Assembly: GCA_945938205.1 (NCBI GenBank)
Contig: CAMEUL010000001.1
Span: 1-33,820, forward strand
Origin: an uncultured Traorella sp.
GTDB taxonomy: Bacteria > Bacillota_I > Bacilli_A > Erysipelotrichales > Erysipelotrichaceae
Direction: 5' to 3'
DNA: 33,820 nt
Part shown: positions 10,576-32,660 of the stretch, piece after piece
How the letters are laid out: every line of letters starts with the position of its first letter
Numbering within the stretch: position 1 is the stretch's first letter
Notes under the pieces: generated by a model
Told to the model about the DNA's origin: nothing
Seen by the model: only the letters and a program-made list of their open reading frames with translations
The model's database searches: none
Translations under genes and position numbers: made by a program

Positions 10576-12153
10576 ATGAAAAAGAAATACAAAATTGATA
10601 TTGAAAAATCATTTAAGGTCCATACCGTCTTGCTAATCGCTATGGGTGTTTTGATCAATGTACTGCTCCCTCGAGCCGTTATTGCTTTGAATCTGCCACT
10701 TTACTTGGATAATATCGGCAGTGTCATTGCAGCTGCTTTAGGTGGTCCTATTCCCGGAATGGTAACTGCTTTTACCTCAAATTATTTAGGATATTTTGGA
10801 GAACCATCTGCTATCATGTTTGGTGTGCTCACGGTTACGATGGCATATTTGGCTTCTCTATTATCACAACATGGATTGTTGAGACAGAAAAAAGGATATT
10901 TCCTTTTATGGTCCATGATGGTTCTGATTGGTGGTGCAGTGGGATCTATTATGGGATGGTATTTGTATGGAGAAACGGTAGGAGGAACCATAGCTGCTCC
11001 TTATGTGTTTTATCTTGTTGATTTAGGCGTCGATGGTTTTTGCGCTCAGTTTTTAGGGGATGTCTTCTTAGATGTGATCGATAAGGGAATTACTGTTTTG
11101 CTTGTTGCTTTATTTTTGCACTATTTTCCGAAAAGACTGCGCGAAGTCTTTCCACTTAGTTATGTCTATGGATGTTCAGAAGAGGATTTGGAAAAAGAAT
11201 ATCAAAAAAGAAAAACACCTTATACCGGTATTTCTGTTTTCAACAAGGTCATGATTATTGTTTCAATTGCTTTAGTAATTTTGGCGGTAGTCGTTACCTG
11301 CTACAGTGCCGGTACATATTTGACATATCAATTCAGTGTAAATCATGACACATATGCTCTTTTTGGATATATTGTTCAATTGATAGGACTGGAATTTGTC
11401 ATTATTATCTTTACGGTAATTATTTCCAGTTGGATGACCTATGAAACTCTGACAAAACCTTTGAATGCAATTGTAAGTCATTCTGAACAGTTCAGTCATT
11501 CAGAACAGGAAAAATGGCTCAATACAGAGCAATGGAAAAACCGTTATGTTGTGAAAACAAAGGATGAGATCCAGGTTCTGTATGATACGATCTGTGCTTC
11601 TGAAGAAATGATATCGCAAAAGGTGATCCGTATTCGAGAAAATGAAAGTAAACTGAAAAAACTCTCTGAAATAGATCTCATGACCAATGTGAAAAACAGA
11701 GGCAGTGGAGAAAAAGAGATTATTCATCTTCTGAAAGAAGGCAAAACAGGATTATTTTGTCTTTTAGACTGTGATAAATTCAAGAAAATTAATGATACCT
11801 ATGGACATATTGTTGGGGATAAAGTTTTGATCGAAATCGCCGAAAAACTAAAAAAGGTATGTCATCCACAAGATATCTTGCTGCGTTTAGGCGGAGATGA
11901 ATTCGCAATTTATAAATGTGATATTCATGATGAAAATAAAGCTATGGAGTTCTTTCATTTATTATTTGATTATATTCAGGATATTTCTGTTGAGGAGATG
12001 GCGGATGAAAAAGTATCCATCAGCTTAGGAGCTTCATTTTATACAGGAGATATCAATATTACTTTTGATGATTTGTATCGTCAGGCTGATTTCGCATTGT
12101 ATGAAAGTAAAAAAACAACAGGTTCTGCCGCAAATATTTATCACAAGAATTAA
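10576..12153 (+). CDS. Membrane diguanylate cyclase with N-terminal ECF S-component-like domain
   Basis: LPLYLDNIGS..AALGGPIPG TM domain; HAMP-like linker (KPLNAI...DEIQVLY); DLMT..NR, DCDKFKKINDTYGH..GD, RLGGDEF; I-site is HxxD rather than RxxD. Confidence 0.88.
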   Translation: MKKKYKIDIEKSFKVHTVLLIAMGVLINVLLPRAVIALNLPLYLDNIGSVIAAALGGPIPGMVTAFTSNYLGYFGEPSAIMFGVLTVTMAYLASLLSQHGLLRQKKGYFLLWSMMVLIGGAVGSIMGWYLYGETVGGTIAAPYVFYLVDLGVDGFCAQFLGDVFLDVIDKGITVLLVALFLHYFPKRLREVFPLSYVYGCSEEDLEKEYQKRKTPYTGISVFNKVMIIVSIALVILAVVVTCYSAGTYLTYQFSVNHDTYALFGYIVQLIGLEFVIIIFTVIISSWMTYETLTKPLNAIVSHSEQFSHSEQEKWLNTEQWKNRYVVKTKDEIQVLYDTICASEEMISQKVIRIRENESKLKKLSEIDLMTNVKNRGSGEKEIIHLLKEGKTGLFCLLDCDKFKKINDTYGHIVGDKVLIEIAEKLKKVCHPQDILLRLGGDEFAIYKCDIHDENKAMEFFHLLFDYIQDISVEEMADEKVSISLGASFYTGDINITFDDLYRQADFALYESKKTTGSAANIYHKN

Positions 12154-12157
12154 CCTT

Positions 12158-12191
12158 TAAAGTCTCTGATGCATATTGAAAGAGACTTTTT
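12158..12191 (+). terminator. Terminator after GGDEF gene
   Basis: AAAGTCTCT...AGAGACTTT plus T-run. Confidence 0.65.
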
Positions 12192-12257
12192 AGTTCTTTA
12201 TGAAAGGCATGTTATTTTTTTGCGGAATGTAGTAAAATTAAAAAAACGGAGACTCAT

Positions 12258-13157
12258 ATGAATTTTGAAAAAGCGAAACAGTTTATTTATAGAAATGCCA
12301 GACCGCTTGATTTGGTAAGATGGCAATATCTGTTTGAAAACGGGAGCAAAGAAGATGTGCTGAAAATATTGGCTTCTTATCAGAATGAAGATGGAGGTTT
12401 TGGTCATGGTCTTGAATCAGACAGTTGGAATCCTAATTCTACTCCTGTACAGACATGGGCAGCGACTGAAATCATCAGAGAAATTGATTTAAACGATTCA
12501 GATCATCCGATCATTCAGAAAATCCTGAAATATCTCTCATCAAAAGATGCTTTCAATGGTCATATATGGCTGAATACTGTTTCATCAAATAATCTTTATC
12601 CGCATGCACCTTGGTGGCACGATACCGCAACACCAAAGATCACCTATAATCCAACAGCTTCACTCATTGGCTTTATCATTCATTATGCTGATAAAGAAAG
12701 TGAACTATATGCCAGAGCGATATCTCTGGCAAAAGAAGCTTATGCTTATTTCAAAATGAATTTTCCACTTGATTCCATGCATACTGTTGCTTGTTTTGTG
12801 GAGTTGTATGAGGATCTCAAAGAAAGTGATATTTCAATCATCCATCTGGATGAATATGAAGAGTTGCTTCAACGACAAATCAAATATCTTCTGACATCCG
12901 ATCCCGAACTCTGGGCGAGAGAATATGTATGCAAACCCTCTTTGTTTATTCATTCAAAGAACAGTACTTTCTATTCAAAAAATCAAGAGGTCTGTACATT
13001 AGAATGTGCCTTCATCGACAAAACACAACAAGAAGATGGCAAATGGGAGATAACTTGGAAATGGAATGAATATCCAGAACAATGGAACATTACTAAAAAC
13101 TGGTGGAAAGCTGATCAGATTATTAAAAATATAAAATTCTATCAAACGATGAATTAA
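12258..13157 (+). CDS. Conserved hypothetical protein with prenyltransferase/squalene-cyclase-like QW-type repeats
   Basis: NARPLD, YQNEDGGFGHGLE, HAPWW, QQEDGKW; no function assignable. Confidence 0.6.
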   Translation: MNFEKAKQFIYRNARPLDLVRWQYLFENGSKEDVLKILASYQNEDGGFGHGLESDSWNPNSTPVQTWAATEIIREIDLNDSDHPIIQKILKYLSSKDAFNGHIWLNTVSSNNLYPHAPWWHDTATPKITYNPTASLIGFIIHYADKESELYARAISLAKEAYAYFKMNFPLDSMHTVACFVELYEDLKESDISIIHLDEYEELLQRQIKYLLTSDPELWAREYVCKPSLFIHSKNSTFYSKNQEVCTLECAFIDKTQQEDGKWEITWKWNEYPEQWNITKNWWKADQIIKNIKFYQTMN

Positions 13158-13176
13158 TAATATTGTAAGGAGTAGA

Positions 13177-14979
13177 ATGATGAAGCATTTGCATAAAATA
13201 ACAGGGATACTTTTAATCATACTTGCAACTGTCGTACTGTGCCTGACTTGTATCAACAATCAGCAATCCATGATGGCGTTTCCTCTGAAAGTATCGTTTG
13301 TTGGTGACTATAAGATCGAGGATGGAGACTGGAATCCCATCACAAAAGATAAATTCATTGCTGCTAATCAGGGGAATGTTACCTTGAAAGGATTTTTTCA
13401 GCTGGAAGATCCGGATGGAAATGTTTTAGGTGAAGTTGAAGAAGGAATGATCGTAGATCTGTATTTTAATCATCTTGCAGGAGACGTATTTGTTGAGGGA
13501 GAAGGTTTTCGAGCATTTGATTCTGAAAACAAAATCTATGGAAAAAGCAGCTGTGGTGAACAGTGGATTGCTTATATGGTTCCGGCAGGTGAAGTGGAAA
13601 TAATTTTAAAGAATCCGCATTCTTTTGGAAATGAGAACGCAGTCAATGAATTTCTGGATTCTATGATGCTTTATTCTTCTGAATCAATTGACCAGGCTGT
13701 ACAACAAGGAAATACAGAAAGACTGATAGGTTTTGTGATCCTGATTACATCATTGGGTTTATTGGGAATTGCAATTTTCTCAACGCTGATCCAGGAAATA
13801 CAAAGTGATATGGTCTGGATGCTTGCTTTTTTGCTTTTCTTTGCTGGAGGTTATTTTATACTGAACTCAAAGAATATTTCATTGTGGAGTCCCTTAGTGA
13901 TTTTTAATACAACGGCTTTGCTTTTATGCATGATGCTGTATGTCATTATACTGATGATACTGATGACAAAATCATTCACTTCATATCTTCAAAAAATAGG
14001 AAAGGCTGTTCCTGTTATAATGGGAACCGTTACAGGAGCGCTTCTTTTGTCATCATTATTGAAAGATGTTTATTTGCATGATTTGTTACCTTATTGGACT
14101 TTGGCCTTGGGAATCAGTGATATTTTGATGCTGGGATGCTGTCTGATGAGCCTGAAAGAAACAAAAGGAAAGCATCGGATATTGCTGCTATTCTATATTT
14201 TGTTATTACTTGCTTTTCATATGGATATTCTTGGAACGATATGGGGAAAATGGCAAGGAGGATTTCTTTCAAAAATTCTGTTTTTCTGTTTGTTTGTGAT
14301 TGCTCTTGTCATTGCTTTGAAAGTGATTCCTTCCAATATCAAAAGCAGTATTCATGAAAAGGAACTTGAAGTGGAGCTCCAACAGAGCAGAATATCCATT
14401 ATGCTGAGTCAGATCCAGCCGCATTTCCTGTACAATTCAATCAGTGCTATTCGTGAATTATGCCGTCAGGATCCAAAACGCGCTTTTGATGCTTTAGGTG
14501 TTTTTTCAACTTATCTGAGATCCAATCTGGATTCTTTAGGATCTGAAAAACTGATTCCTTTTTCGAAAGAACTGGCGCATATTCAGGCATATCTAAAGCT
14601 TGAACAACTGCGATTTGGTGATGAACTGAAGGTCGTCTATGATATACAAAAGAAAGATTTTTGCTTACCATCCTTATGTGTGCAGCCTTTAGTTGAAAAT
14701 GCAGTCAAACATGGTTTATGCAAAAAAGAGGGAAAAGGAACGCTGACTTTAAAAACAAGAGAGATAGGCGATAAGATCCTGATTGAAATTCAGGATGATG
14801 GCATTGGTTTTGATGTAGAAAAAATGCATTCAGCCAAAGATAAGAATAAACATTATGGTATTGAAAATGTCAGCATGCGTCTGAAACAAAAAATGAATGC
14901 GGAAATGACCATTGATAGTGAACTTCAGAAAGGAACGACTGTCAGAATACTGATTGATATGCAGAAGGAGGCGTTATGA
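13177..14979 (+). CDS. LytS/YehU-type (His_kinase) membrane sensor kinase 1
   Basis: N-terminal TM + extracellular domain + multi-TM region; SQIQPHFLYN, EQLRF, QPLVENAVKHG, DDGIGF, GTTV. Confidence 0.92.
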   Translation: MMKHLHKITGILLIILATVVLCLTCINNQQSMMAFPLKVSFVGDYKIEDGDWNPITKDKFIAANQGNVTLKGFFQLEDPDGNVLGEVEEGMIVDLYFNHLAGDVFVEGEGFRAFDSENKIYGKSSCGEQWIAYMVPAGEVEIILKNPHSFGNENAVNEFLDSMMLYSSESIDQAVQQGNTERLIGFVILITSLGLLGIAIFSTLIQEIQSDMVWMLAFLLFFAGGYFILNSKNISLWSPLVIFNTTALLLCMMLYVIILMILMTKSFTSYLQKIGKAVPVIMGTVTGALLLSSLLKDVYLHDLLPYWTLALGISDILMLGCCLMSLKETKGKHRILLLFYILLLLAFHMDILGTIWGKWQGGFLSKILFFCLFVIALVIALKVIPSNIKSSIHEKELEVELQQSRISIMLSQIQPHFLYNSISAIRELCRQDPKRAFDALGVFSTYLRSNLDSLGSEKLIPFSKELAHIQAYLKLEQLRFGDELKVVYDIQKKDFCLPSLCVQPLVENAVKHGLCKKEGKGTLTLKTREIGDKILIEIQDDGIGFDVEKMHSAKDKNKHYGIENVSMRLKQKMNAEMTIDSELQKGTTVRILIDMQKEAL

Positions 14980-15812
14980 TGAATATCCTTGTTGTAGATG
15001 ATGAACGTCTTGCATTGGATGGCTTGATCAATGAACTTGAAAAAGTATTTCCCAATGCGAAGATCCATGGCGAAAGAATGGCATTTTTAGTGATGCCATG
15101 GGTAGAGAATCTGAAAGAACAGGAAGAAACGCTTTCCTATGCTTTTTTGGATATTGAAATGGGGTCAATTAGCGGATTAGAACTGGCGCGGCAACTAAAA
15201 GATATTTATCCTCATGTGAAACTGATCTTTTGTACAGCTTACAGTGAATATGCCATTAATGCTTATGGTTTGTGTGCTAAGGGATATTTGTTGAAACCGA
15301 TACAAGCCAAAGATATCGAACATGTATTAGATGAAATGGTAATGGATTGGCGTGAAGAAATCAATTCAAGGGATCGTGACATCCGTGTACAAACATTTGG
15401 ACATTTTGAAGTATTTGTAGATGGAAATCCCCTTGTATTTGAAAGATCGAAAGCAAAAGAACTGTTAGCTTATCTGGTCGATCGTCATGGTTCGTCTGTC
15501 ACAACAGAACAGATTGCCATGATATTATGGGAAGATGCTGTTTATGACAGAAAGCTCAAGAATATGACAACTACCATTATTGCCTCTTTACGCAATACTC
15601 TTAATGCGGCAGGAATTGGAGATATCATCATAAAATCATGGAATCATTTATCTTTAGACGTTTCTAAAATTAAATGTGATGCTTATGATTATGAAAAATG
15701 GGATGTGATTGCAGTAAATTCTTATCATGGAGAATATATGGTGAATTACTCTTGGGCAGAATTCACCAATGGAAAATATGCCACCATGGAAGAAAAAACC
15801 AATAAAGAATAG
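14976..15812 (+). CDS. Response regulator 1 (REC + winged-helix, SARP-like output)
   Basis: VVDDE, FLDIEM, CTAYSEY, YLLKP; output VQTFGHFEV..KAKELLAYL..ILWE..CDAY..YHGEYM..YSWA; overlaps kinase stop. Confidence 0.88.
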   Translation: MMNILVVDDERLALDGLINELEKVFPNAKIHGERMAFLVMPWVENLKEQEETLSYAFLDIEMGSISGLELARQLKDIYPHVKLIFCTAYSEYAINAYGLCAKGYLLKPIQAKDIEHVLDEMVMDWREEINSRDRDIRVQTFGHFEVFVDGNPLVFERSKAKELLAYLVDRHGSSVTTEQIAMILWEDAVYDRKLKNMTTTIIASLRNTLNAAGIGDIIIKSWNHLSLDVSKIKCDAYDYEKWDVIAVNSYHGEYMVNYSWAEFTNGKYATMEEKTNKE

Positions 15813-15838
15813 CTTGATCGAAAGATCAAGTTTTTTTA
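15811..15838 (+). terminator. Terminator after response regulator 1
   Basis: AGCTTGATC-GAAA-GATCAAGTT plus T-run. Confidence 0.85.
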
Positions 15839-15856
15839 TTCACATGTATATTATTA

Positions 15857-15892
15857 TTGTTGTCCTTTTGTTGTCCTTTGTTTTGTATAATA
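15857..15892 (+). promoter_or_regulatory. Tandem-repeat promoter, type A (upstream of alarmone synthetase operon)
   Basis: Perfect 11-mer tandem TTGTTGTCCTT x2 (15857-15878), TATAAT at 15886-15891; 15861-15892 matches 28039-28070 at 31/32 nt. Confidence 0.8.
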
Positions 15893-15918
15893 CTTACATT
15901 TAAAGAGGGAGCTTGGAT

Positions 15919-16998
15919 ATGAACATTAAAGATAGAATGATTATAGAAGAATACAGAAAACAGAAAGCTGATTTTGAGAGATTGGGAGATGTAGTACATC
16001 AGATCATGAAGGACATGCTGAAGGATGCTCATATCATGGTCAATGCAGTCCAGCATCGTGTCAAAGAAGAAAAGAGTCTTCAGGGAAAACTCTATCGAAA
16101 ACCAGATGAACTACAGAAGTTTTCAGATCTTACAGATATTCTCGGTACCCGAATTATTTGTTACTTTGCAGATGATGTGGATCGAATTGGGAAACTGATT
16201 GAAAATACCTTTGAGATTGACTGGGAAAACAGTACCGATAAAAGAGCTCTTTTAAAAGCGGATGCTTTTGGGTATCTATCGCTTCATTATATTTGCTTGC
16301 TGCCAGCCAATGCAGGATATCCTGAAGAACTTTTAGGAAAAAAGTTTGAAGTGCAAATTCGTACCATTCTCCAACATGCATGGTCAGATGTGAATCACGA
16401 TTTGGGGTATAAAAGTGAATTTGGAGTACCAAGAGAAATTGTGCGTGAATTTGCTCGCTTGGCAGGATTAATGGAAATCGCCGATGAAGAATTCATGCAT
16501 GTTCGTGATCATGTGAAAGAATATACGCAGGATACCAGAAAGAAAATCATTGAAGATGAAGCAGAGGATGTTTTGATCAATCTCGTTTCTTTAAGTGAAT
16601 ATATGCTGCATAACAAAAAAATGAGAGCCTTTCTTCAGAAACTGGCAGACATTGAAAACTCTGAGATTACTGAAATAGATCCGGAAAACTATATCAATCA
16701 GTTGAAATGGCTGAAAGTAGAAACGATTGGGGATCTTCACAGAATGCAGGAAAGAAATGAAAAACTGGCTTTTGAGTTAGCCAAGAAAACACTGGAAGGA
16801 TCTGAATTGGATATTCTTTCTTCCAATGTGGCACTGCGTTTCTTATGTCGTGCAGAATTAATTCAAGGAAAATACAGTGAAAATGAAGTAACTGAATTCA
16901 TCATGCTGACAGTCAATATCAGAGAAAGAGCTGAACGTCAGGCCAAACGACTGATGAGAACAGCCGATGCTCTTATGAAGGATGAGAAGAATGGATGA
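15919..16998 (+). CDS. RelA/SpoT-domain alarmone synthetase (SAS-type, with C-terminal extension)
   Basis: HRVK..KSL..K, DILGTRII, FGYLSLHY, EVQIRTILQHAWSDVNHDLGYK; no HD, TGS or ACT domain recognised; RBS GAGGGAG favours ATG15919. Confidence 0.9.
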   Translation: MNIKDRMIIEEYRKQKADFERLGDVVHQIMKDMLKDAHIMVNAVQHRVKEEKSLQGKLYRKPDELQKFSDLTDILGTRIICYFADDVDRIGKLIENTFEIDWENSTDKRALLKADAFGYLSLHYICLLPANAGYPEELLGKKFEVQIRTILQHAWSDVNHDLGYKSEFGVPREIVREFARLAGLMEIADEEFMHVRDHVKEYTQDTRKKIIEDEAEDVLINLVSLSEYMLHNKKMRAFLQKLADIENSEITEIDPENYINQLKWLKVETIGDLHRMQERNEKLAFELAKKTLEGSELDILSSNVALRFLCRAELIQGKYSENEVTEFIMLTVNIRERAERQAKRLMRTADALMKDEKNG

Positions 16999-18835
16999 AT
17001 ATGAAAGAGCATTGAAATTTGCTACCAAGAAGCATGAAGGACAGTATCGAAAAGGTGGAGAACCCTATATTACTCATCCTATAGCCGTTTCCAATATCTT
17101 AAAAGAAAAAGGATATGGTATAGAGTATCAGATTACCGCACTCTTTCATGATTTGTTGGAAGATACCGATGCGACTAGAGAAGAAATTGAAACTCTTGGC
17201 GGTAAAGAAGTGTTGAAAGCAGTTGAACTGCTGACCAAGCATGAGGACTATCAGATGGAAGAATATGTTTCGAATATCCGTAAGAATCCGATTGCCTTTG
17301 CCGTAAAGGGAGCAGACCGTCTGCATAATCTTTTGAGTGCTGTGGACACAGATGAATCCTTCAAACGTCGTTATATTTTGGAAAGTATTGACTGGTATTT
17401 GGATTTTTCAGAAGAAATGCCCAAAGCTGTCAAAGCATTAGTGAAAACATTGGATCAGCCGATCCGCAAAATGTCATTGGAATATGATCCGGTTCATTCA
17501 GCAAAAGAACTCAAGGCCAATGCCTTTGTATTAAAAGGAGATATATGTTACTCAGTTTCACTTACTGAACTAGTTACGGTATCACAGGGATATGTGGTAT
17601 GTATTGAAGGAAAGTCACAGGGTGTGTATGAAATATTACCAGATGAATATTCAAAATTACCGCTCCATGATTATGGACATCGTTTGATTCTTCCAGGTAT
17701 GGTAGATCTTCATATCCATGCTCCTCAGTTTGCTTTTCGCGGATTGGGGATGGATGATGAATTGATGGTTTGGCTTCAGAAACAAACCTTTCCTGAGGAA
17801 TCAAAATATCAGGATCTTGAATATGCCAGAAAAGCTTATACTCAGTTTTGTGATGCAATGCATAAAAGTGCAACGACTCATGCATGTGTGTTTGGAACCA
17901 AGCATCGTGATGCGACCATTCTATTAATGGAACTTATGGAGAAAAGCGGACTTGTCAGCTATGTGGGAAAGGTCAATATGGATCGTGATGCACCGGAAGC
18001 ATTATGTGAGCCGAGTGCTGATTATTCTGCTTATGATACATTTGGTTGGATCAATCAGGTTCATGGAAGATTCCACCATACAAAACCAATCTTAACTCCA
18101 CGCTTTATTCCTTGTTGCACCAACGAACTATTGGAACAGTTAAGAGAAATACAGATTGCTTATGATCTTCCAATACAGTCTCATCTTTCTGAAAACATTG
18201 GTGAAGTAGAATGGGTCCATCAGATACGTCCGGATGTTGCTTTTTATGGGGATGCTTATCATGACTATGGATTGTTTGGAATTGAGCGAAGAAGTGGAAA
18301 GAAAGTTCCAACCATAATGGCTCATTGTGTATATTCAACCGAAGATGAAGTAGATCGTCTCTTAGAAAATGGTGTTTATGTGGCGCATTGTCCAACGTCG
18401 AATGTTAATTTGTCTTCAGGAATAGCACCTGTTCGAAAATATTTGAAAAAGGGTTTAAAAATTGGGTTAGGAAGTGATGTTGCTGGAGGACATACGGAAT
18501 CCATGTTTGAGGTCATGAAAGAAACGATCCAAGTTTCAAAACTTTACTGGCGATATGTTGATCAAAAGGATGCACCGATTACTTTTAAGGAAGCCTTTTA
18601 TCTGGCAACTAAAGGTGGCGGAAGTTTCTTTGGAAACGTAGGAAGTTTTGAAAAAGGATATGATTTCAGTGCCATCGTACTTGATGAAAGCACTCTTCCA
18701 CATCCTCAAGAACTATCACTGATTCATCGGCTTGAAAGGGCTGTTTATGGATCGTTGGATCAAAAAGGTCTTGTAGCCAAATATGTGGATGGCAGTAAAT
18801 TGTTTGATGAAAAGGAGGGATTGGATGAAAAGTAA
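16991..18835 (+). CDS. Fusion: Mesh1/SpoT-type HD alarmone hydrolase + guanine deaminase
   Basis: N-term HEGQYRKGGEPYITHP, ALFHDLLEDT, KGADRLHNL; C-term PGMVDLHIHAPQF, TPRF, QSHLSEN, MAHC, HCPTSN, GLGSDVAGG (GuaD motifs); single uninterrupted frame. Confidence 0.9.
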   Translation: MDEYERALKFATKKHEGQYRKGGEPYITHPIAVSNILKEKGYGIEYQITALFHDLLEDTDATREEIETLGGKEVLKAVELLTKHEDYQMEEYVSNIRKNPIAFAVKGADRLHNLLSAVDTDESFKRRYILESIDWYLDFSEEMPKAVKALVKTLDQPIRKMSLEYDPVHSAKELKANAFVLKGDICYSVSLTELVTVSQGYVVCIEGKSQGVYEILPDEYSKLPLHDYGHRLILPGMVDLHIHAPQFAFRGLGMDDELMVWLQKQTFPEESKYQDLEYARKAYTQFCDAMHKSATTHACVFGTKHRDATILLMELMEKSGLVSYVGKVNMDRDAPEALCEPSADYSAYDTFGWINQVHGRFHHTKPILTPRFIPCCTNELLEQLREIQIAYDLPIQSHLSENIGEVEWVHQIRPDVAFYGDAYHDYGLFGIERRSGKKVPTIMAHCVYSTEDEVDRLLENGVYVAHCPTSNVNLSSGIAPVRKYLKKGLKIGLGSDVAGGHTESMFEVMKETIQVSKLYWRYVDQKDAPITFKEAFYLATKGGGSFFGNVGSFEKGYDFSAIVLDESTLPHPQELSLIHRLERAVYGSLDQKGLVAKYVDGSKLFDEKEGLDEK

Positions 18836-23237: not shown

Positions 23238-24044
23238 ATGGGTGATAATAGTATGCAGGATCTGCTTTTCTACATTACAAGAAAAGAAACATTATATTCT
23301 ATAGGAATTGTTCTTATTGGCGGCATTGTTTATTTGTGCTGCCGGAAACTGATACGCAGGATCATTATGAAGGATGAAGATAAACATCGTCTTTCAAGAA
23401 AAAACAAAACCTATCTGAAACTGTTTAATAATGTTTTGAAATATATGCTTTTCCTGATTGTGCTGATACTCGTGCTTCAGATCAATGGCGTCAATGTTAC
23501 CTCGATTGTGACAAGCCTTGGGCTGTTATCGGTGGCGTTTGGTTTTGCACTTCAGGATGCATTAAAGGATATCATTATGGGTATCAATATCATTTTAGAT
23601 GATTATTTTTCAGTCGGAGATGTGATAAAGATTGGAGATGTTGAGGGGAAAGTCACTGAAATAGGATTAAAAACAACTCATATGAAAGATGTGAATACAA
23701 ATAATATCTTTGTCATATCCAATCGTAACATTACCGAAGCATTGAAATTGTCCTATTTCCTGGATATTGATCTTCCGCTTCCTTATGAAGAAGATATCAA
23801 TGATATGGAAAAACTGATTGAAAAAATGATCAAAAAGATTGAAAAATTAGATCATGTCATCAGTGTGGAATATAAAGGTATCCAGAAATTTGGATCTTCT
23901 GCAATTTACTATAAAATCCGTATCCTGTCTAAAAATGAATTTAAAAAACAAATCATGCGTGATGCTCATTGCATCATAAAACGTATTTTAGATGAGAATC
24001 AAATTCGAATTCCTTATCAGCAAATTGATATTCATTCAAAGTAA
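23238..24044 (+). CDS. Small-conductance mechanosensitive channel family protein
   Basis: Three TMs, GFALQDALKDII.G, FSVGD.IKIG..EGKV.EIGLKTT, IPYQQ. Confidence 0.92.
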   Translation: MGDNSMQDLLFYITRKETLYSIGIVLIGGIVYLCCRKLIRRIIMKDEDKHRLSRKNKTYLKLFNNVLKYMLFLIVLILVLQINGVNVTSIVTSLGLLSVAFGFALQDALKDIIMGINIILDDYFSVGDVIKIGDVEGKVTEIGLKTTHMKDVNTNNIFVISNRNITEALKLSYFLDIDLPLPYEEDINDMEKLIEKMIKKIEKLDHVISVEYKGIQKFGSSAIYYKIRILSKNEFKKQIMRDAHCIIKRILDENQIRIPYQQIDIHSK

Positions 24045-24059
24045 AAGGAGTATTGGTTT

Positions 24060-24869
24060 ATGAAAATTCTAGTAGCAGATGATGAGAAAATCGCTCTGAA
24101 TGGTTTGGTCAATGAAATCAAAAAAGTTCTTCCGAATGCTGAAATATACAAATTTCATGGAGGAAAAGAAGTCCTGAATTCATGTCTGGACCAAACGTAT
24201 GATATTGCTTTTCTGGATATTGAAATGAGAGATGTGAATGGAATCGAACTTGCGAAAGAATTGAAAGCTATTCATCCCAAAATCAACATCATCTTTACAA
24301 CGGGATACAGTGAATATGCTCAGACAGCTTTTTCAATCCACGCCAGTGGATACGTAATTAAGCCGGTTACTGCCGACAAAATTGCAAAAGAAATCGAGAA
24401 TCTACGTTATTCTATTGTTACTGAGGACGAAGAAACACTTCATATTTAAACTTTTGGAAATTTTGAATGCTTTGTCAATCAGATTCCTGTGAAGTTCAAA
24501 TATACGAAAACCAAAGAACTTCTTGCATATCTGGTTGATCGTGGCGGTGCTCTTTGCAGCAATGGTGAATTGATATCAATTTTATGGGAAGATTGCGCTA
24601 CTTCTAAAAGTCAGTCTTCATATTTAAGAAATCTTTATGCGGATCTGATTCAGTCCTTGAAACAGGTACATTGTGAGAATGTCATCATTCGTCAGAGAGG
24701 AAAAATTGCCATTTGTCCGGATAAGGTAATCTGTGATTATTATGATTGGCTAAAGGGTTATCCCTATGCCATCAATGCATATCGTGGTGAATATATGAGT
24801 CAGTACAGCTGGAGCGTGTTTTCTTTAGGTGTGTTTGATAAAGAAGAAGATGAAATCAACCAAAAATGA
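24060..24869 (+). pseudogene. Response regulator 2 (REC + SARP-like wHTH) split by in-frame TAA at 24447-24449
   Basis: Reads ..LHI*TFGNFECFVNQIPVKFKYTKTKELLAYL.. in one frame, aligning with IRVQTFGHFEVFVDG of regulator 1. Confidence 0.9.
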
Positions 24870-24898
24870 TTCCATCTTTTCTTTTAACAGGAGGGTTT

Positions 24899-26656
24899 AT
24901 GAAAGGACAGAAACTCATTCAGTATCTCTATATAGGACTTGTCATATTGGTCTTGGGATTTTTTGGCTATGTTTTTATGAATGAAAATAGTATCAAAATT
25001 TCTACAAGACAGAATCAGGATTATTTCAAAGTAGAAAATGTCCAGGAAAGAATCATTCAAGATGATATGGCTCCTATAGGTATAAAAAAAGAATACACAT
25101 GGAATCTTCAGAAAGGATCTTCTGAAGGTGAGTGTTTGGGTTTTTATGTGGTGCACCAGTATGTGGATGTGTATATTGAAAATGAACGGGTATATCATTT
25201 AGGATCAAAGGATGATTCACTTGGAAAAACGGTTGGAAGTGACTGGGTATTTGTTCCTTTGAACGAAATGGATCAAGGAAAAAGAATTCGAGTCGTGATA
25301 ACACCTGTTTATAAGAGCGTAGAAAACAGAGAGGTTTCATTTCTGATTGGAGCACAAATGGAAATTTATTCGGATCAGTTAAACAAGGATTTTCCTGAGC
25401 TTTTACTTAGCATGGTGCTCATTCAGTTAGGTATTTTGCTTCTCTTCATTTCTCTGTATCAGATGTTCCGGAAAAAATCAGTGAATGATTTTTTGTATCT
25501 TTCTTGTTTCTCATTGACACTGGGTGTATGGAAACTGTCGGATACAAGGTTTTCACCTCTTTTGTTCCCTCAGCATACCTATCTGCTTTCTTGTTTATCT
25601 TTGGTTACATTGATGATATCAGCGATTCCTTTAATGATGATCATAAAAAACCAGACAAATAAAAAACAAAGTTTTCTTCTAAGTGGACTGACTTTATTGA
25701 TGATTTTAGCCTCTTTTGTTATGATCCTGCTTCAGTTGTTTCATATTCAGGATTTTAGAGAAACTCTGTTTATTACACATATATTGCTGATAATGTCGAT
25801 TTTGTTCATTACAGGTATTCTAATGCAGTTATGGTTTCAAAAGTCTTATACGCATAAAGAAAAAGTAAAAAAAGGATTGTTTCTGTTTTGCATCGTAGGT
25901 GGCATGCTTGATATCATCCATTTCTATGTTCAAGGAAACTCCGTGGGAATTTTCTATACATTAGTTGGATTTGTTTTGTATATTATTATGACCGGTGGAA
26001 TTAAAGTCATAGAAATCAGCGAGCAAGAAAAACGGCTGAAAGAACAGGAAGCAGAATTAGCAAGAAGCAGAGTATCCATCATGCTGAGCCAGATTCAGCC
26101 ACACTTTCTTTATAATGCATTGAATTCCATTTATCATCTTTGTGAAATGGATCCAATGACTGCCAAAAAAGCAATCATTGATTTTTCAGATTATCTCAGA
26201 GTGAATCTGGATTCGCTCAACAGAACTACACTGGTACCTTTTTCGATGGAATTGAAACATATTAAAACATATCTGAATCTAGAAAAAATGCGTTTCGAGG
26301 AAGATCTGCAAGTTGTCTATGATATTCAGACCGTTCAGTTTTCACTTCCATCCTTAACGATTCAGCCTCTTGTGGAAAATGCCATCAAACATGGAATGAA
26401 GGGAATATCATCAGCCCTTACATTAACGATTCAAACCATTGAAAAAGAAGAAACTTATGAAATTCATGTAATAGATGATGGAAAGGGATTTGATATCAGT
26501 CAGAAAAATACGGATACCACAAAAACACATGTTGGAATAGAAAATGTCAGAAACCGTTTGAGTGAAATGTGTCATGGCTCTTTGCAGATCCAAAGTGAAA
26601 TTGGAAAAGGCACTCATGCTATTGTTGTAATACCAAAAAGCAAGAATATGTCATAG
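24899..26656 (+). CDS. LytS/YehU-type membrane sensor kinase 2
   Basis: SQIQPHFLYN, EKMRF, QPLVENAIKHG, DDGKGF; RBS AGGAGG favours ATG24899 (ATG24866 is the alternative). Confidence 0.92.
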   Translation: MKGQKLIQYLYIGLVILVLGFFGYVFMNENSIKISTRQNQDYFKVENVQERIIQDDMAPIGIKKEYTWNLQKGSSEGECLGFYVVHQYVDVYIENERVYHLGSKDDSLGKTVGSDWVFVPLNEMDQGKRIRVVITPVYKSVENREVSFLIGAQMEIYSDQLNKDFPELLLSMVLIQLGILLLFISLYQMFRKKSVNDFLYLSCFSLTLGVWKLSDTRFSPLLFPQHTYLLSCLSLVTLMISAIPLMMIIKNQTNKKQSFLLSGLTLLMILASFVMILLQLFHIQDFRETLFITHILLIMSILFITGILMQLWFQKSYTHKEKVKKGLFLFCIVGGMLDIIHFYVQGNSVGIFYTLVGFVLYIIMTGGIKVIEISEQEKRLKEQEAELARSRVSIMLSQIQPHFLYNALNSIYHLCEMDPMTAKKAIIDFSDYLRVNLDSLNRTTLVPFSMELKHIKTYLNLEKMRFEEDLQVVYDIQTVQFSLPSLTIQPLVENAIKHGMKGISSALTLTIQTIEKEETYEIHVIDDGKGFDISQKNTDTTKTHVGIENVRNRLSEMCHGSLQIQSEIGKGTHAIVVIPKSKNMS

Positions 26657-26662
26657 GCTTTA

Positions 26663-26694
26663 TTGCAGTTATATTGTACTAAGTATACTAAAAT
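26663..26694 (+). promoter_or_regulatory. Tandem-heptamer promoter, type B (upstream of CPBP gene)
   Basis: TTGCAGT-tata-TTGTACT-N8-TAAAAT; TATTGCA(g/c)TTATATTG(t/c)A shared with 10522-10539. Confidence 0.65.
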
Positions 26695-26714
26695 GTAAGC
26701 ATTGAGGAAAAGCT

Positions 26715-27983
26715 ATGAAAAATAGAAATCATTTATTATTAGATAATCCCATACTTAGTTCATTTTTGATGCCAGTTCTTTTTATGGTAATGCTTAACTT
26801 GATGTCTACTTTCACAGCTCTTTTATTTGAGAATGCATTTGGGAAAACAAGCTTGCTTTATATGATCAATGATGATATCGCTTGTTTTTGTGTTTCCATG
26901 CTGTTTATCATTTTTATGAATCAGTTTTTTAAGAAGAACTGTCATTTTGGCATCACCAGTGGAAATTTTAAAAAAGGAATGTTGCTTTCATTGCCCGGTC
27001 TTATTATAGTATTTTGGAATCTTCTGCAGATAATAGTCAATCATCTTCCTCTTGTGAGTGGTACCAATGCTGTCATTGCAGCAATAATTGCAGGAATTGG
27101 TCCAGGTGTTGCAGAAGAAATTATGAGTCGAGGATTTGTCATCTCGAATCTGATGCGTTTATGGAAAGATAAGGACAAGAAATATTTGTATATCCTGTTT
27201 ATTTCCGGTTTCTCATTTGGTTTGTTGCATGCAGTGAACTATTTTGCGACATACGATCTATTGGGAACATTTGTTCAAGTGATTTATGCGAGTGCCATCG
27301 GTATTTTCTATGCAGCAGTTTATTTGCGTTCCAGAAACTTGTGGGGCGTGATGATCGTACATTCTTTAACGGACATCGTTGCAATGATGATTGTTTATGA
27401 AATGGGAAATACGACGATATTGGATGTTATTTTTGCTTTGGTCCTTTCCATTATAATGATTGGCATAGCATTATTGATCATTCGCCCAGGAACTTATCAG
27501 GAAATGGATGAAATCTGGGAAGATAACTGGGAATTAAGTACCGGGATCACAAAAAGACCATTATGGAAAACTATCCGCATTTTTCTATTTGTCCTTTTTA
27601 TTCTTTTTGCTTCTTCTGTTGGGGTGGTGTTGTATAAGTCATACATGGGTTATCAGACAGGAGCTCCTCAAATCACAGATGTTGAATGTGAAATAAATCC
27701 GGAAAAGACACAAATCAAGATCCAGATGCCTAAAGAAATGGGATCAATGATTACTCTTAATAATTCAGATCCAGAAGTGCTGATACAGACAATGGTAACG
27801 GTAGAAGAAAAGAAGACCAGTTATACATTTAAAGTTGGCAATGTTCAAGAAGAAAAAAAGGTTACTTTAAATTTTAAGTCAGTAATCTTAGACAACCAAA
27901 ATGAATTAACCATGGGTACTTATACGATCGTAATATCCATTGATAAAAACGGAAAGATTACAGATTACCATGATGTAAATTAG
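26715..27983 (+). CDS. CPBP (CAAX protease/Abi) family intramembrane protease with extra C-terminal soluble domain
   Basis: EEIMSRG, FGLLH, HSLTD motifs; additional TM then ~110 aa beta-rich domain. Confidence 0.85.
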   Translation: MKNRNHLLLDNPILSSFLMPVLFMVMLNLMSTFTALLFENAFGKTSLLYMINDDIACFCVSMLFIIFMNQFFKKNCHFGITSGNFKKGMLLSLPGLIIVFWNLLQIIVNHLPLVSGTNAVIAAIIAGIGPGVAEEIMSRGFVISNLMRLWKDKDKKYLYILFISGFSFGLLHAVNYFATYDLLGTFVQVIYASAIGIFYAAVYLRSRNLWGVMIVHSLTDIVAMMIVYEMGNTTILDVIFALVLSIIMIGIALLIIRPGTYQEMDEIWEDNWELSTGITKRPLWKTIRIFLFVLFILFASSVGVVLYKSYMGYQTGAPQITDVECEINPEKTQIKIQMPKEMGSMITLNNSDPEVLIQTMVTVEEKKTSYTFKVGNVQEEKKVTLNFKSVILDNQNELTMGTYTIVISIDKNGKITDYHDVN

Positions 27984-27986
27984 TGT

Positions 27987-28028
27987 AATAAAAAATCGTT
28001 ATTTAAACAAAAAAACGATTTTTTTATT
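27987..28028 (+). terminator. Terminator after CPBP gene
   Basis: AAAAAATCGTT...AACGATTTTTT inverted repeat. Confidence 0.65.
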
Positions 28029-28037
28029 TTGAATACG

Positions 28038-28070
28038 ATGTCCTTTTGTTGTCCTTTGGTTTGTATAATA
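28038..28070 (+). promoter_or_regulatory. Tandem-repeat promoter, type A (upstream of EamA-MATE)
   Basis: ATGTCCT-tttg-TTGTCCT-N8-TATAAT; near-identical to 15861-15892. Confidence 0.8.
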
Positions 28071-28282
28071 TTACTAATTAAAAGTTTGGGTGATTTGTTA
28101 TGTGGGCTAGTTGTTTGTTGATTAGTATTTTATTATGGAGCGTTACAAGTATTTTTTATAAAAAAGGTGCATATAAGGATGATTAAAGTGGTCCCCTTGT
28201 CAAGGACAAAAATAAAAAAAGAACTTTAAAAGAATAAATAAAAGAATTATCCTCCTGTTGAAGTGAATAGGAGGAATTTTTT

Positions 28283-28552
28283 ATGGAATATAAATGTAAA
28301 TGGTATTTGTCTGATGGAAGTGTTTTGAGAGGTAAAACAGCTGCTAAATATTTACATACAAAGCTAAAGAACTATGAGAGATTGATTGAAGATGTGGATT
28401 GTGTCCTGTCTAGATCTTTGAAATCCAATCATATTGTAGAAGAAAATACTTTAGCTAATACAGTCATGTCTACCGGCGAAACTTTGTCCATTATTCAAAT
28501 AGAACTTGAATTATTGTTAGAAAGGGTGTCTTGTGTTTTGGAAGATTCCTGA
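28283..28552 (+). CDS. Hypothetical 89-aa passenger ORF inside the IS
   Basis: Strong RBS AGGAGG before ATG; no recognised motif; overlaps the 3' end of orfB on the opposite strand. Confidence 0.5.
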   Translation: MEYKCKWYLSDGSVLRGKTAAKYLHTKLKNYERLIEDVDCVLSRSLKSNHIVEENTLANTVMSTGETLSIIQIELELLLERVSCVLEDS

Positions 28553-29607
28553 TTTCGAGCATCCTTGACCTTTTTGATCTTTTCTTTGATCTTATCAGGT
28601 TCTTTGATATATTCTTTCAGTGGATAGTTTCCTGTCTGATAATATTCATAAAATTCATTTGGAGATAACTTGGCCAAATTGTATTGGTATCTTTCATTAT
28701 TATAGTAGTCAATATAATCATCAATGATTTCCTTAAGTTCTTCAAATGTTTCTATATCCTTGAAATTCTCACCAATCTCATCCTTCATATGTCCAAAAAA
28801 GGATTCTTGTGGTGCATTGTCCCAACAGTTTCCTCGTCTTGACATCGATCGTCGAATTTCTTTATCTTCCAATAGATCGATGAATTGTATTGAGGAATAA
28901 TGTGCCCCTTGATCTGAATGTATTAATGCATCTGTATGTATCTTTTCTTTATGATTTTCAAATAGTTGATTCACTGTTTCTAAAACAAATTCTTCTTCCA
29001 TCGACAGTGACAAGACGTATGCAAGTATCTGCTTTGCAAAGGCATCTTTGATGACCGATAGATAAGTTTTCGTCCTTTTTTGCGAAAAGTAAAAATAAGT
29101 TATATCCGTCAATAAGACATATCCTGGCCCATAATCTTCAAAATGCCTATCTAATAGATTTTCTGCATAATTGGATGTTCTTATCGCTTTCATCATTCTT
29201 CGATATGGATTAGCTTTACGTATCGGGCAGAGCAGATGATATTTTTTCATCAATCTGGATATCTTCTTTTCGTTCATGACGATTCCTTTATGCAATAGCC
29301 GCATTCGTATGCCTCGTCTTCCTTTATCTATTCCTTTATGTTTGTAAGCATCCAATATCAAATCGAAATCTTTTTCATCTTGTTTTTCTTTCTTTTTCAT
29401 GTATGATTCTGGATTTTTCTTTGAGTTTATCCATGCATAATAACCACTTTTGGATACTCCTGCTGCCTCACAAAGATAGGCTATTGTAAGTGTATTGCCC
29501 TTTGATTGCAATGTCCTATTGATCAGTTCGTATTTTTCTCTTGCTCCTTTATCCTTTGCATCTTGGATAGTTGCTTTCTGTTGATAGATCTGACTCTTTT
29601 TAAAAAA
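28495..29607 (-). CDS. IS3-family OrfB DDE transposase (frame open from 29607; TTG at 29511)
   Basis: LLTDITY, HSDQGAHY, SMSRRGNCWDNAPQESFF, YIDYYNNER. Confidence 0.95.
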   Translation of the reverse strand, partial: FFKKSQIYQQKATIQDAKDKGAREKYELINRTLQSKGNTLTIAYLCEAAGVSKSGYYAWINSKKNPESYMKKKEKQDEKDFDLILDAYKHKGIDKGRRGIRMRLLHKGIVMNEKKISRLMKKYHLLCPIRKANPYRRMMKAIRTSNYAENLLDRHFEDYGPGYVLLTDITYFYFSQKRTKTYLSVIKDAFAKQILAYVLSLSMEEEFVLETVNQLFENHKEKIHTDALIHSDQGAHYSSIQFIDLLEDKEIRRSMSRRGNCWDNAPQESFFGHMKDEIGENFKDIETFEELKEIIDDYIDYYNNERYQYNLAKLSPNEFYEYYQTGNYPLKEYIKEPDKIKEKIKKVKDARNQESSKTQDTLSNNNSSSI

Positions 29608-29969
29608 TCATTCTCTTGTTGGAGAATTTTGTTTTTATGTTTCAAACGTGCGATTTGTTCTTCCGGTGTTAGATCTTTTGTGATGGGTCTTCCACTATTG
29701 CCTTTGCGTGTATCCTTGAATCCTGCTGATCGTTCAGCTTCCTTTTTGATGCGATAAGTAAAATTATTTCTTCGCTTATTATCTATAACTTTTAGATCAA
29801 ACCCATATTTATAGAAGATCATCGACGGAGACATTCCACTTTGATAGTCATTCCAGAATAGTTCCTTAAAAGTCTCACTGTAATTGATATAATTCTCAGT
29901 TACACTTGTAACATATGGATTTCCTTTTAAATGTTCAATTTGTTCTTGTGTGAATTTCTTTACTGCCAT
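29523..29969 (-). CDS. IS3-family OrfA (HTH)
   Basis: L..NPYV..V....I.YS..FK, zipper-like EEQIARLKHKNKILQQENDFLK; overlaps orfB in -1 frame. Confidence 0.88.
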   Translation of the reverse strand: MAVKKFTQEQIEHLKGNPYVTSVTENYINYSETFKELFWNDYQSGMSPSMIFYKYGFDLKVIDNKRRNNFTYRIKKEAERSAGFKDTRKGNSGRPITKDLTPEEQIARLKHKNKILQQENDFLKRVRSINRKQLSKMQRIKEQEKNTN

Positions 29970-30956
29970 CTTTATTTCTGCTCCTTACCAATAGTTTACC
30001 AAAAAGAAAGAACCCTGTAAGTAGGGTTCCGTTATTTTATCTCTTTTTTTGGTTGTCCTATTTACAGGGTCCATTTTAGATCGATATATCCATTTAAAAT
30101 TTTCGGTGATTACAGGACTTCTATGTTTTATTATAGCTTTATGTTACATTGTCATTCGAGAAGAATCCTTTTCGATATGGGAAAGTGCAATTCGATTCTG
30201 GCCAATGACTTTGTTTGGAATTATCTATGCTATCGGAAACACTTTTACCTTTAAAGGTTTTTTGTATAATGATGTATTCGTAATTGCTCCTATTGAAAAT
30301 ACAGCCAATGGTTCTTATGTCTTGATCTTGATTATAATGTATGTGTTGCTGGGTCGTGTTAATTCCGTTTGGGAAGTGTTAACACCATATAAAATTATTG
30401 GAATTCTATGTATTTGTGCAGGTATTGCATTCCTTGCTTTTGTTCAGCATCAACAGGCGAAATCTTCGGGTAATTATGAAAGATTTAAAGCAGGGGCATC
30501 AGCACTGATCTTTCCATTGCTTTTTTCAATGATGGATGGTCTTGAAACAGTCGTCAGTGGCTTATGTTTGGATAAAACATTCGGATTCGCCATGCCGGAA
30601 GGAGACAGCATTATTATCGGCGGAATGGAATATGCTTTCTTTGCTTTGATTTTCTGGATCTACATTAGTATCAAGGAAAAGAAATTATTCAATCCTGTCT
30701 CAAAAAAATATATGCTTTTTTTCGGTGGTGCTTTATGTGATAACATTGCCATTGTATCATATTCATATGCAATGGCGATTGATTCTGTGGCAACAGATCC
30801 CATTCTTGCTGTTTATCCCGTGATTACGATATTGCTGTCAAGAATTCTATTAAAAGAGAAACTTTCAAAGAAACAGTATTTGTGTTTGGTGTTGTTGCTT
30901 GTAGGAAGTTTCATGATCGTTATTGAACAGATAATGTAAGTATTGAAAGGGATAGT

Positions 30957-32660
30957 ATGAAAAAGTGTTTTTCCAATAAAAAATTTCGATCGTTGCTCTT
31001 GACGGGATCTTTTACCGTTATCATACAGTATTTGATGATCCTTTCTGATACGATTATCATAGGAAATATATTAGGTGAACAGGAACTTGCCGCCGTTAAT
31101 GTGATCAAGCCTGTTCAATCTTTTGTTATCTTTGTTACTTCTTTGATCAGTATTGGTACGTCAGTTTATTATTCATATGAAATAGGTAAATTCAATAAAA
31201 ATCGAGCTGATTGTATTTTTGGAGAAGGAATTTTTCTTGCGACATTATCAGGCATTCTGCTTTTTTTGGCAGGAGTATATGGAAATGATATTTATTTCAA
31301 TTATCTAAATATTTCTTCTCAAGTGAGAATGGGTGCTTTTAATTACTATTTCTATTATCAGTTTGTAATCCTTCTTCTACCTTTTTATACTGTCTTGCTT
31401 GAACTTGTTTATGCTGATGGTGATGAATGGATCTGTAATATTTCAAGTGTCGTTCAAATCCTTGTGAATATTCTTTTTTCTGTTTTGTTGTGCTATCGAA
31501 TTGGTATTTTGGGAGTAGGATTAGGTTCTTTATTTGGAATGATTTCAAGCATAGCGATCTTGTTAATTCATTTTATGAGAAAACAGAATACTCTTCATTT
31601 TGTCTTACATTTCAATTATCAGGATATTTTAAATATAATAAGATGTGGAATGACAGATTCAAGTGCTTATTTATTTATGGGAATGACTTCTTTTGCTACA
31701 TCAAAATTCGTGCTAACTAATTTTGGTGAATATTATTTACCGATTCTACTTGTTGTTTTTGATATTATTGAATTAACGCTTGTCTTTGATGGAATTGGAC
31801 AGGCAGTCACACCAATCATCAATGTATATCGAGGAGAAAAGAATCATGCTGGTATTCGAAGGATCATGAGGACGTCTTTGATGTATGCAACTGCAGAAGG
31901 AATAGGTCTATCTATATTGCTATACTTTTTTGGCGAGAATGTGGCAGTACTGCTTGGACTTTCAGATGCTGAATTGATTGAAATCAGCAGTGTTGCTATA
32001 CGTTTGGTCAGTCCGTTCTTTTTCTGTTCTGGGATCTTGTTCTTAGGAACAACCTATTACATGATCATTCAGAAAGAAATTCTTGCGACAGTGATTACCG
32101 GTGTGAAAGATGCTCTGATTCCAATTACTTTTATCTGCATATTTGGTCTTTTCTTTGGCATTCATGGAGTATGGATTGGTTTAGGTCTGTCTCCGTTTGT
32201 TTCTGTTGTTTTAATTTCTCTGTATATCTTGATGCGTTATGGAAAAGAAAAGTTTCCTTTGCTTTTGGAGAAAGATGATCGAGAAATCTATATCTATGAT
32301 ATTGAATTGAATTAACAAAATATTCTAGATCTCAGAGATCAAGTAGAACATCTTCTTTTGGAAAAAAATATTCAGCGAAAAAGCATTCATCAAGTTATGT
32401 TGTATATTGAAGAAGTTGGCATACTGATTTATGAAAAAAACAAAGGAAAGAAAACTTTATGTGAATGTAGCATTATTCTTGGTGATGACATTGAAATCAT
32501 TCTTCGAGATGACGGCATTATATTTGATCTGACTGATCCGGATAATTCAATTGAATCACTTAGAGGTTATGTAGTGGCCCATCTCATGTTGCATCTGCCA
32601 AACAGATTTAATCTTATGACAACAGGATATAATCGCAATATGTTTAGATTCAACAAATAG
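30957..32660 (+). pseudogene. MATE family transporter with C-terminal HATPase-like domain, separated by in-frame TAA at 32313-32315
   Basis: DTIIIGNILG..LAAV, NILFS..L, GI.GVW MATE motifs; DIELN*QNILDLRDQVE.. continues in frame into ORF 32358-32660 (IEE, LRDDGIIFD). The transporter part itself is complete. Confidence 0.82.

Follow-up and report, generated by a model that had tools for sequence, protein, structure and literature searches.

The 33,820-nt stretch of DNA from an uncultured Traorella sp., a low-GC Gram-positive gut bacterium, analysed here (the window, contig C1 of a 1.42-Mb assembly, G000, that is 79% complete) contains, between 15919 and 21943, a conserved core of genes that we read as a partner switch without a sigma factor, likely controlling an alarmone synthetase/hydrolase pair; judged from sequence, we give this reading slightly better than an even chance. 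The core comprises a small alarmone synthetase (SAS), an HD hydrolase, a membrane sensor joined to a PP2C phosphatase and a kinase, and a STAS protein. The catalytic motifs of these parts are intact, the parts co-occur in other genomes, and their promoter is shared. The cassette is a real, conserved and apparently undescribed variant of partner switching in an ordinary patchwork island. An earlier sequence-only reading had drawn up the gene content correctly (GGDEF, RelA_SpoT, HD_4 with Amidohydro_1, SpoIIE/HATPase_c_2, STAS, two kinase/regulator pairs, MscS, EamA and MATE), and its description of a switch lacking a sigma factor also holds, no sigma factor gene being found in the window.

Synthetase, hydrolase and switch proteins

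The SAS matches the RelA_SpoT family, with a SYNTH domain and no HD domain. It has 359 aa and a folded C-terminal domain, unlike the RelP/RelQ type of about 200 aa with no further domain. Residues R47, K49, S53, K57, D73, R78, Y119, H123, E144 and Q146 are invariant in 29 alignment rows; the roles of these catalytic motifs follow in part passages of PMC11782079. The structure model is confident (predicted local distance difference test, pLDDT, 88), and its SYNTH fold is closest to RelP/RelQ (Z 19.4, root-mean-square deviation (rmsd) 2.1, 177 aligned), compared with Z 12.4, 11.6 and 8.0 for CapRel, Tas1 and FaRel. On the basis of this fold and of the hydrolase type, the SAS is predicted to make (p)ppGpp.

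The C-terminal domain had no Pfam or PDB sequence match, and whole-chain fold searches barely probe it. It is present in 317 clusters at 50% identity, and 51 of the 52 listed proteins of at least 300 aa that carry it also have SYNTH. Among 16 proteins with the domain that were scanned, one was an HATPase_c_2-SAS fusion (P0196) and another a SAS-HD fusion (P0129); longer fusions of the domain were not found, which is weak evidence. The plasmid and phage record collections gave no match. The motif LDILSS[N/S/T]V[A/G]LR was found in this domain, by pattern, in 43 of 59 cassette SAS and in none of 80 viral relatives. It aligns weakly with the STAS phospho-loop and offers a lead to where a partner may dock.

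The hydrolase keeps the HD, H-x-x-Q-x-R, PY-x-x-HP and D-R-x-H/N motifs of the (p)ppGpp type. Its invariant Arg20 aligns with Arg43 of TtRel, and the Aph1-type Asp is not present; passages of PMC10083569 set the Arg of (p)ppGpp hydrolases against the Asp of the Aph1 (p)ppApp hydrolases. The fusion to a guanine deaminase recurs, with both domains in 48 of the best 120 clusters listed, the window's included. The deaminase part scores 328 against TIGR02967 (cut-off 375), its best PDB relative is 2I9U (E 5e-117), and it keeps its metal ligands, with H241, H243, H398, E401 and D496 invariant. In locus L030, an HD-deaminase fusion and a separate HD gene occur together (612-2498 and 9992-10474).

The sensor-phosphatase-kinase protein keeps the PP2C metal motifs and the N, G1 and G2 boxes of the kinase. 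Its sensor is QueT-like in the window and of the 5TMR-LYT type in 14 other loci; with the sensor interchangeable, the purine sensing proposed in the sequence-only reading finds no support. The two S-component-like domains of the window, in the cyclase and in the phosphatase sensor, were not detectably alike. The adjacent 195-aa protein, unk195, is possibly a pseudokinase. It resembles DUF6272/HATPase_c_2 clusters, and its low-confidence model (pLDDT 55) has SpoIIAB and RsbW as best structure matches, with a SiaB-SiaC structure at rank 20 (E 0.05).

In the mechanism that we propose, the histidine kinase HK1 and the response regulator RR1 would switch the operon on via a TGTCC repeat promoter, and the membrane sensor would shift the relative action of the PP2C phosphatase and of the RsbW-like kinase on Ser54 of STAS. 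The phosphorylation state of STAS would then gate the SAS through its C-terminal domain. In the form that we slightly prefer, STAS would bind the SAS directly, as SiaC activates SiaD; in the other, STAS would pull the kinase off the STAS-like motif of the SAS domain, so that the SAS would stand in a sigma factor's place. The HD enzyme would reset the signal, the fused deaminase, found in a minority of lineages, would drain guanine, and the amount of a predicted nucleotide of the (p)ppGpp type would in this way depend on an outside signal. To our knowledge, the activation of SAS beyond transcription and product allostery is largely an open question.

Neighbours and promoter of the synthetase

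For the neighbourhood survey, genomes were scanned with the HD part alone, and the best 80 of 411 matches gave 79 loci, 47 with this SAS adjacent and 32 with the hydrolase only. STAS was present in 37 of the 47 SAS loci versus 1 of the 32 hydrolase-only loci, PP2C in 29 versus 1, the HATPase kinase in 28 versus 1, a histidine kinase and response regulator (HK and RR) in 13 versus none, and unk195 in 5 versus none. At least one switch gene accompanied the SAS in 43 of the 47 loci, and this association was seen in 17 of 20 lineages (all SAS loci, cut at 70% identity). Guanine deaminase was found in 7 of the SAS loci versus 2 of the others, MATE in 3 versus 1, EamA in 2 versus 0 and MscS in 0 versus 2; the cyclase N-terminus, DUF5684, CPBP, orf299 and murQ were found in none of the 47. 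The sequence-only reading had suggested such an analysis, seeded with the HD-GuaD fusion, as its own check. The core co-occurs, and the claim that the sigma-less switch and the alarmone enzymes belong together stands across lineages; the cyclase, MscS, DUF5684 and CPBP never accompany the SAS, and the extension of that claim to the whole 22 kb as one circuit fails.

A search seeded with the SAS matched 16 of 400 genomes, of which 13 were examined (two were seeds and G329 was left out); the set also took in seven SAS relatives from the host's order. Within the examined stretch, STAS was present in 10 of 12 genomes with the C-terminal domain and in none of eight SAS relatives with a divergent C-terminus. 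Four of these ten STAS loci repeat earlier ones and six form one close group; since the others repeat or cluster, the independent gain lies mainly in L194 and L197. Both keep STAS and a kinase beside the SAS and have no hydrolase, none being found in the examined stretch of L194-L197. The two C-terminal-domain genomes without a local STAS carry STAS elsewhere in the genome, and all five genomes without a local kinase carry one elsewhere (41-49% identity). In a 200-genome sample, which reuses the genomes of the earlier searches, this STAS family was held by 7 of 7 SAS carriers besides the central genome versus 14 of 192 others. The correlation of SAS and STAS distances (Spearman 0.54) was not counted as support because kin share it. 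Seven sigma queries found sigma-like genes in 3 of 60 SAS loci, two of these being the same locus, with no conserved position.

These results bear on the two forms of the mechanism in different ways. Direct binding of the SiaC/SiaD kind is favoured because STAS is the most constant neighbour, and release from the kinase is favoured because of the kinase fusion, the motif and the presence of a kinase elsewhere in five of five genomes.

Other genes were observed around the cassette. In 17 loci a conserved protein of 320 aa, hydrophobic in a segment at its C-terminus and not present in the window, lies directly 5' of the SAS (L086:7677-8633, L045:7931-8905); searches of Pfam, PADLOC and PDB gave no match for it. 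Beside the cassette, L026:7417-9158, L028:6120-7864 and L016:4483-6200 have a second HD hydrolase with a STAS-APH kinase fusion after it, and L026 and L028 also have a tyrosine phosphatase. Directly after STAS, L024:14084-19082 and L030:12994-17920 have a PAS-adenylate/guanylate cyclase, an amino-acid ABC transporter and a cNMP-binding protein; this cyclase is a predicted source of a third nucleotide messenger beside the cassette.

Upstream of the SAS lies a 44-nt promoter-like repeat (TGTCC-N6-TGTCC, then TATAAT; family D8), found at 15861-15904 and again at 28039-28082. These two (promoters P1 and P2) are the only perfect copies among four one-mismatch matches in the genome, in agreement with the earlier claim of a promoter common to the cassette and the export genes. 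All 4 loci with a regulator 62-66% like RR1 have the repeat and its TATAAT at the head of the SAS operon, and none of the 12 loci (10 distinct) with a regulator 35-43% like RR1 does; in several of these 12, different 11-bp direct repeats were read by eye at that position. RR1 thus likely binds the repeat promoter and activates both P1 and P2. The exact pattern occurred in 3 of 401 genomes, two of which hold the SAS; it is not SAS-specific, because it also occurs in G444, where the SAS was not found.

Several points weigh against control of the alarmone pair by the switch. Switch genes are lacking in 4 of the 47 loci, of which two are short contigs, gene order in the cassette varies, and the loci share ancestry, so that the counts overstate independence. 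Each fusion is a single sequence for which read-through or an assembly artefact is possible. HHalign gives the STAS-like motif only a weak match (probability 3.8%, E 0.011), and its phospho-equivalent position is Asn in 24 of the 43 motifs. Half of the viral relatives (40 of 80) match the C-terminal profile and stand alone; because stand-alone prophage relatives carry a related domain, the C-terminal domain did not arise for STAS and predates the switch, and its origin may lie in toxicity or defence. In 14 genomes the STAS family is present although the SAS was not found there, from which it follows that the switch has other outputs. Finally, the host has sporulation-type sigma factors elsewhere in its genome, presumably a sigE/sigG-like pair (C97:3855-5399) and a sigF-like gene before spoVA-like genes (C34:9360-10091); these suggest that the host is a spore former.

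The last two points would suit a co-regulated toolbox, in which the switch acts on an unlinked sigma factor, transporter or cyclase and the alarmone pair is controlled by transcription only, via one two-component system. Such an arrangement would also fit the dCache-GGDEF, STAS-APH kinase, tyrosine phosphatase and adenylate/guanylate cyclase genes that recur around the cassette. We consider it unlikely, if the most serious of the alternatives, as STAS stays beside the SAS in several gene orders, with or without HK/RR and without the hydrolase, a kinase is fused to the SAS in one protein, and the LDILSS motif was gained only in the cassette clade.

Prophage relatives and the surrounding island

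Viral contigs hold 355-aa relatives of the SAS, of which 80 of 132 were kept. They correspond to PHROG 9640, the closest described family (E 5e-68 over residues 9-281 of the window's SAS), whose members are 30-44% identical to the SAS. STAS, HD or unk195 was found nearby in none of the 80, and in 12 the relative lies between tail-completion and baseplate genes. A quick tree groups the cassette SAS inside this family as one clade with support (99). The stand-alone 355-aa proteins occur in prophages of diverse hosts (L223:7992-9068; loci L223-L302) with no obvious antitoxin gene, and they are candidates for a single-gene defence or lysogen-fitness factor.

A speculative extension, which we hold to be doubtful, is that Bacillota captured a prophage-type SAS into the seat of the sigma factor: a STAS-mimic loop gained by its C-terminal domain would let the kinase hold the SAS off, and dephosphorylated STAS would release it. 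If true, this would be a ribosome-independent, membrane-sensed control of (p)ppGpp in gut Bacillota.

The kinship with PHROG 9640 and the 12 loci among tail and baseplate genes could also point to a toxin or anti-phage module, in which a prophage-derived SAS would be toxic through (p)ppApp, excess (p)ppGpp or tRNA pyrophosphorylation, the HD enzyme would be a type IV antitoxin, and the switch would trigger dormancy or abortive infection. The adjacency of SAS and small alarmone hydrolase (SAH) recalls FaRel/ATfaRel as presented in passages of 10.1101/575399, and there is a weak PADLOC PDC-S33 match (E 1e-16). However, that match spans only the common SYNTH part (positions 33-175 of the 349-position model), and the fold is nearest to the non-toxic RelP/RelQ, not to CapRel, Tas1 or FaRel. 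The absence of a hydrolase from the examined stretch of L194-L197, the metabolic and signalling genes in the neighbourhood, and RNA-library contigs that cover the operon in gut samples further make such a module improbable.

The core lies in a variable interval between two RNA genes (Table 1). In two same-genus genomes this interval is 4.5 and 6.4 kb long with unrelated genes inside; a third has no window genes within 17 kb after tmRNA, and in a fourth the contig stops at the interval. The SAS C-terminal domain was present in 14 of 400 Clostridia genomes, and in the host's class (399 genomes) only in G000 and in one marginal match; a class search centred on G445 covered the Clostridia sample again. 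Because the domain is found chiefly in Clostridia and the window's SAS nests inside clostridial SAS, the stretch was likely acquired by the host. GC content and GC at third codon positions (GC3) did not set the interval apart. A 35-nt repeat of tmRNA and tRNA-Ala (family D13) was rejected as a pair of attachment (att) sites because both genes are intact and relatives have them too. At the start of the interval, 9580-10482 holds a second murQ copy, 49% to the murQ on contig C4.

Table 1. Features of the window, with coordinates and strand
Feature	Position	Strand	Remarks
Variable interval	9464..33680	.	between tmRNA (9088-9463) and tRNA-Ala(GGC) (33681-33756)
Energy-coupling factor (ECF) S-component-like/GGDEF diguanylate cyclase	10576..12153	+	NF045596 E 1.4e-17, below cut-off; separate unit, outside the conserved cassette
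orf299	12258-13157		likely co-transcribed with HK1/RR1
HK1, membrane histidine kinase	13177..14979	+	His_kinase PF06580 and HATPase_c; likely upstream regulator
RR1, receiver and winged-helix response regulator	14976..15812	+	likely activator of P1 and P2
Promoter P1	15861..15891	+	TGTCC-N6-TGTCC direct repeat, 11-bp period; TATAAT at 15886-15891; likely RR1 site (predicted)
SAS (core)	15919..16998	+	SYNTH domain about 1-200, C-terminal domain about 212-359 (145 aa)
HD small alarmone hydrolase fused to guanine deaminase-like amidohydrolase (core)	16991..18835	+	HD about 1-165; HD_4 and Amidohydro_1
Membrane sensor-PP2C-kinase (core)	18825..21014	+	weak QueT-like, SpoIIE, HATPase_c_2 (RsbW-like; 20592-21014)
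unk195 (core-associated)	21011..21598	+	195 aa, predicted SpoIIAB/RsbW-like fold; N-box Asn apparently replaced
STAS, anti-anti-sigma-like (core)	21644..21943	+	Ser54 invariant; it aligns with the serine in the phospho-loop of RsbV/SpoIIAA
Two DUF5684 membrane proteins and MscS, predicted passengers	21968..24044	+	probably on the cassette transcript
RR2 and HK2, paralogous pair	24060..26656	+	in-frame TAA in RR2 at 24447-24449
CPBP (Rce1-like) membrane protease, predicted passenger	26715..27983	+	
Promoter P2	28039..28069	+	second repeat copy, upstream of the EamA start at 28100
EamA transporter	28100..30939	+	true start 28100; interrupted by IS3 element
IS3 insertion sequence (IS) element	about 28181-30078	-	transposase open reading frames on minus strand; splits EamA
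MATE transporter with C-terminal extension	30957..32660	+	split by in-frame TAA 32313-32315

Near-identical DNA was present in 19 of 23 listed gut/faecal runs, 16 of which hold at least half of the words; several are labelled pig gut. Runs X2 and X9 lack 26799-32701, position 26799 being joined to 32701, and in run X5 one contig holds nearly the whole interval with the IS absent. Inside its CPBP gene (window 26867-27851), run X5 also has a deletion that comes with a short inversion. The in-frame TAA of RR2 is limited to this assembly, a C being read there in 4 of 4 DNA runs. The MATE fusion is one open reading frame of 577-580 aa in L024 and L030; the MATE part of the MATE-HATPase named in the sequence-only reading stands, and its tail had no Pfam family match, 'HATPase' being a label given by reading of motifs. 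No Pfam, NCBIfam or PDB match was found for orf299. Between the DUF5684 genes, at 22460-22632, is a hydrophobic reading frame, short and apparently interrupted close to its start, that has a ribosome-binding site.

The same DNA had also been described as one same-strand unit with one promoter architecture. Because murQ, the cyclase (z -2.6), RR1 (15811-15838, z -4.4) and CPBP are each followed by a terminator-like hairpin with a T-run, there are at least four transcription units; the cyclase has no repeat promoter upstream, and the IS3 element is on the minus strand. From 15919 to 26656 no T-tailed terminator stands out, as had been stated, although the hairpin there (23183-23212), described as weak, is stronger than that (-12.6 kcal/mol, z -3.9, without a U-run). 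RNA-library contigs of one study begin at 15928 and 15946, and those of two studies together span the majority of the gene junctions as far as HK2. As such contigs may include DNA and show no single transcript, they hint only weakly at operon extent. The low cover of murQ and the cyclase by RNA was set aside because the runs had been chosen with 14900-24800.

From their distribution, the cyclase, MscS, DUF5684, CPBP, EamA and MATE genes are best read as passengers gathered in the variable tmRNA-tRNA interval. It would be consistent with a single purine-sensing circuit of 22 kb, linking c-di-GMP, (p)ppGpp, guanine deamination and export, that all genes except the IS lie on the same strand, that P1 and P2 are shared, that a single contig of the X5 strain spans almost all of the interval, and that L024 and L030 share EamA, MATE and the deaminase fusion. 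Such a guanine-nucleotide circuit is nevertheless very improbable, given the genes found in none of the 47 loci (cyclase, orf299, MscS, DUF5684, CPBP), the deaminase in only seven, the internal terminators, the loss of 26799-32701 in two strains and the interchangeable sensor domains. It is just as hard to believe that the hydrolase and not the synthetase is the regulated enzyme: STAS lies most often directly 3' of the HD gene, but the single hydrolase-only locus with STAS is on a contig cut just upstream of that gene, and in L194 and L197, which have no hydrolase, STAS and kinase are still found next to the SAS.

Comparison with known systems

No description of the cassette was found in a literature search with subscription journals and bioRxiv supplements outside its scope. 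Main-text passages of the toxSAS survey (10.1101/575399) and of the classification of RelA/SpoT homologues (RSH) hold no description of the SAS context; a subfamily name for the SAS may already exist in the supplement tables of 10.1101/575399. In the passages of a partner-switch review (PMC8256260), ppGpp is not mentioned, and several non-canonical STAS systems without a known target are listed. If the proposed control is true, a mobile cassette would tie a membrane sensor that can be exchanged to an on/off pair for an alarmone, which would be a new stringent-response input in gut bacteria and a new output class for partner switches.

Among alarmone synthetases, the SAS shares the SYNTH fold and catalytic motifs with RelP/RelQ, but it has the extra 145-aa C-terminal domain and is paired with hydrolase and switch genes. 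PHROG 9640 proteins have the same length and a related C-terminal domain; they stand alone, without STAS, HD or the motif of the cassette clade (0 of 80). As in the toxSAS (FaRel/ATfaRel and CapRel, in passages of 10.1101/575399 and PMC11782079), the SAS overlaps a downstream SAH and has a CapRel-like length with a C-terminal domain; unlike them, its C-terminal domain does not match CapRel (rmsd 22, whole chain), and it is embedded in a signalling operon.

Among partner switches, passages of PMC8256260 describe RsbU/RsbV/RsbW-sigmaB and SpoIIE/SpoIIAA/SpoIIAB-sigmaF, which share with the cassette a PP2C phosphatase, a STAS protein with a phospho-loop serine and an anti-sigma-type kinase. In contrast to these, the cassette has no sigma factor, its phosphatase and kinase are often fused, and it has a second SpoIIAB-like protein. 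HenR/All4160 of Anabaena also applies a partner-switch-like phosphorylation to an enzyme, according to parts of PMC13555669; there STAS is fused to a glycosyltransferase, whereas in the cassette STAS is free and the enzyme is an RSH. In SiaABCD of Pseudomonas aeruginosa, SiaC binds and activates SiaD (passages of PMC7647112 and PMC8457831). As in that system, a sensor PP2C, a kinase and a STAS-like protein are clustered with a nucleotide-messenger enzyme and no sigma factor. However, the SiaA model scores only 64 against a cut-off of 700, the STAS is RsbV-like with Ser in contrast to Thr68 of SiaC, and the window's cyclase N-terminus is absent from all 47 loci, a different dCache-GGDEF occurring in a minority. 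The predicted output is thus an RSH synthetase/hydrolase pair where SiaABCD has a diguanylate cyclase.

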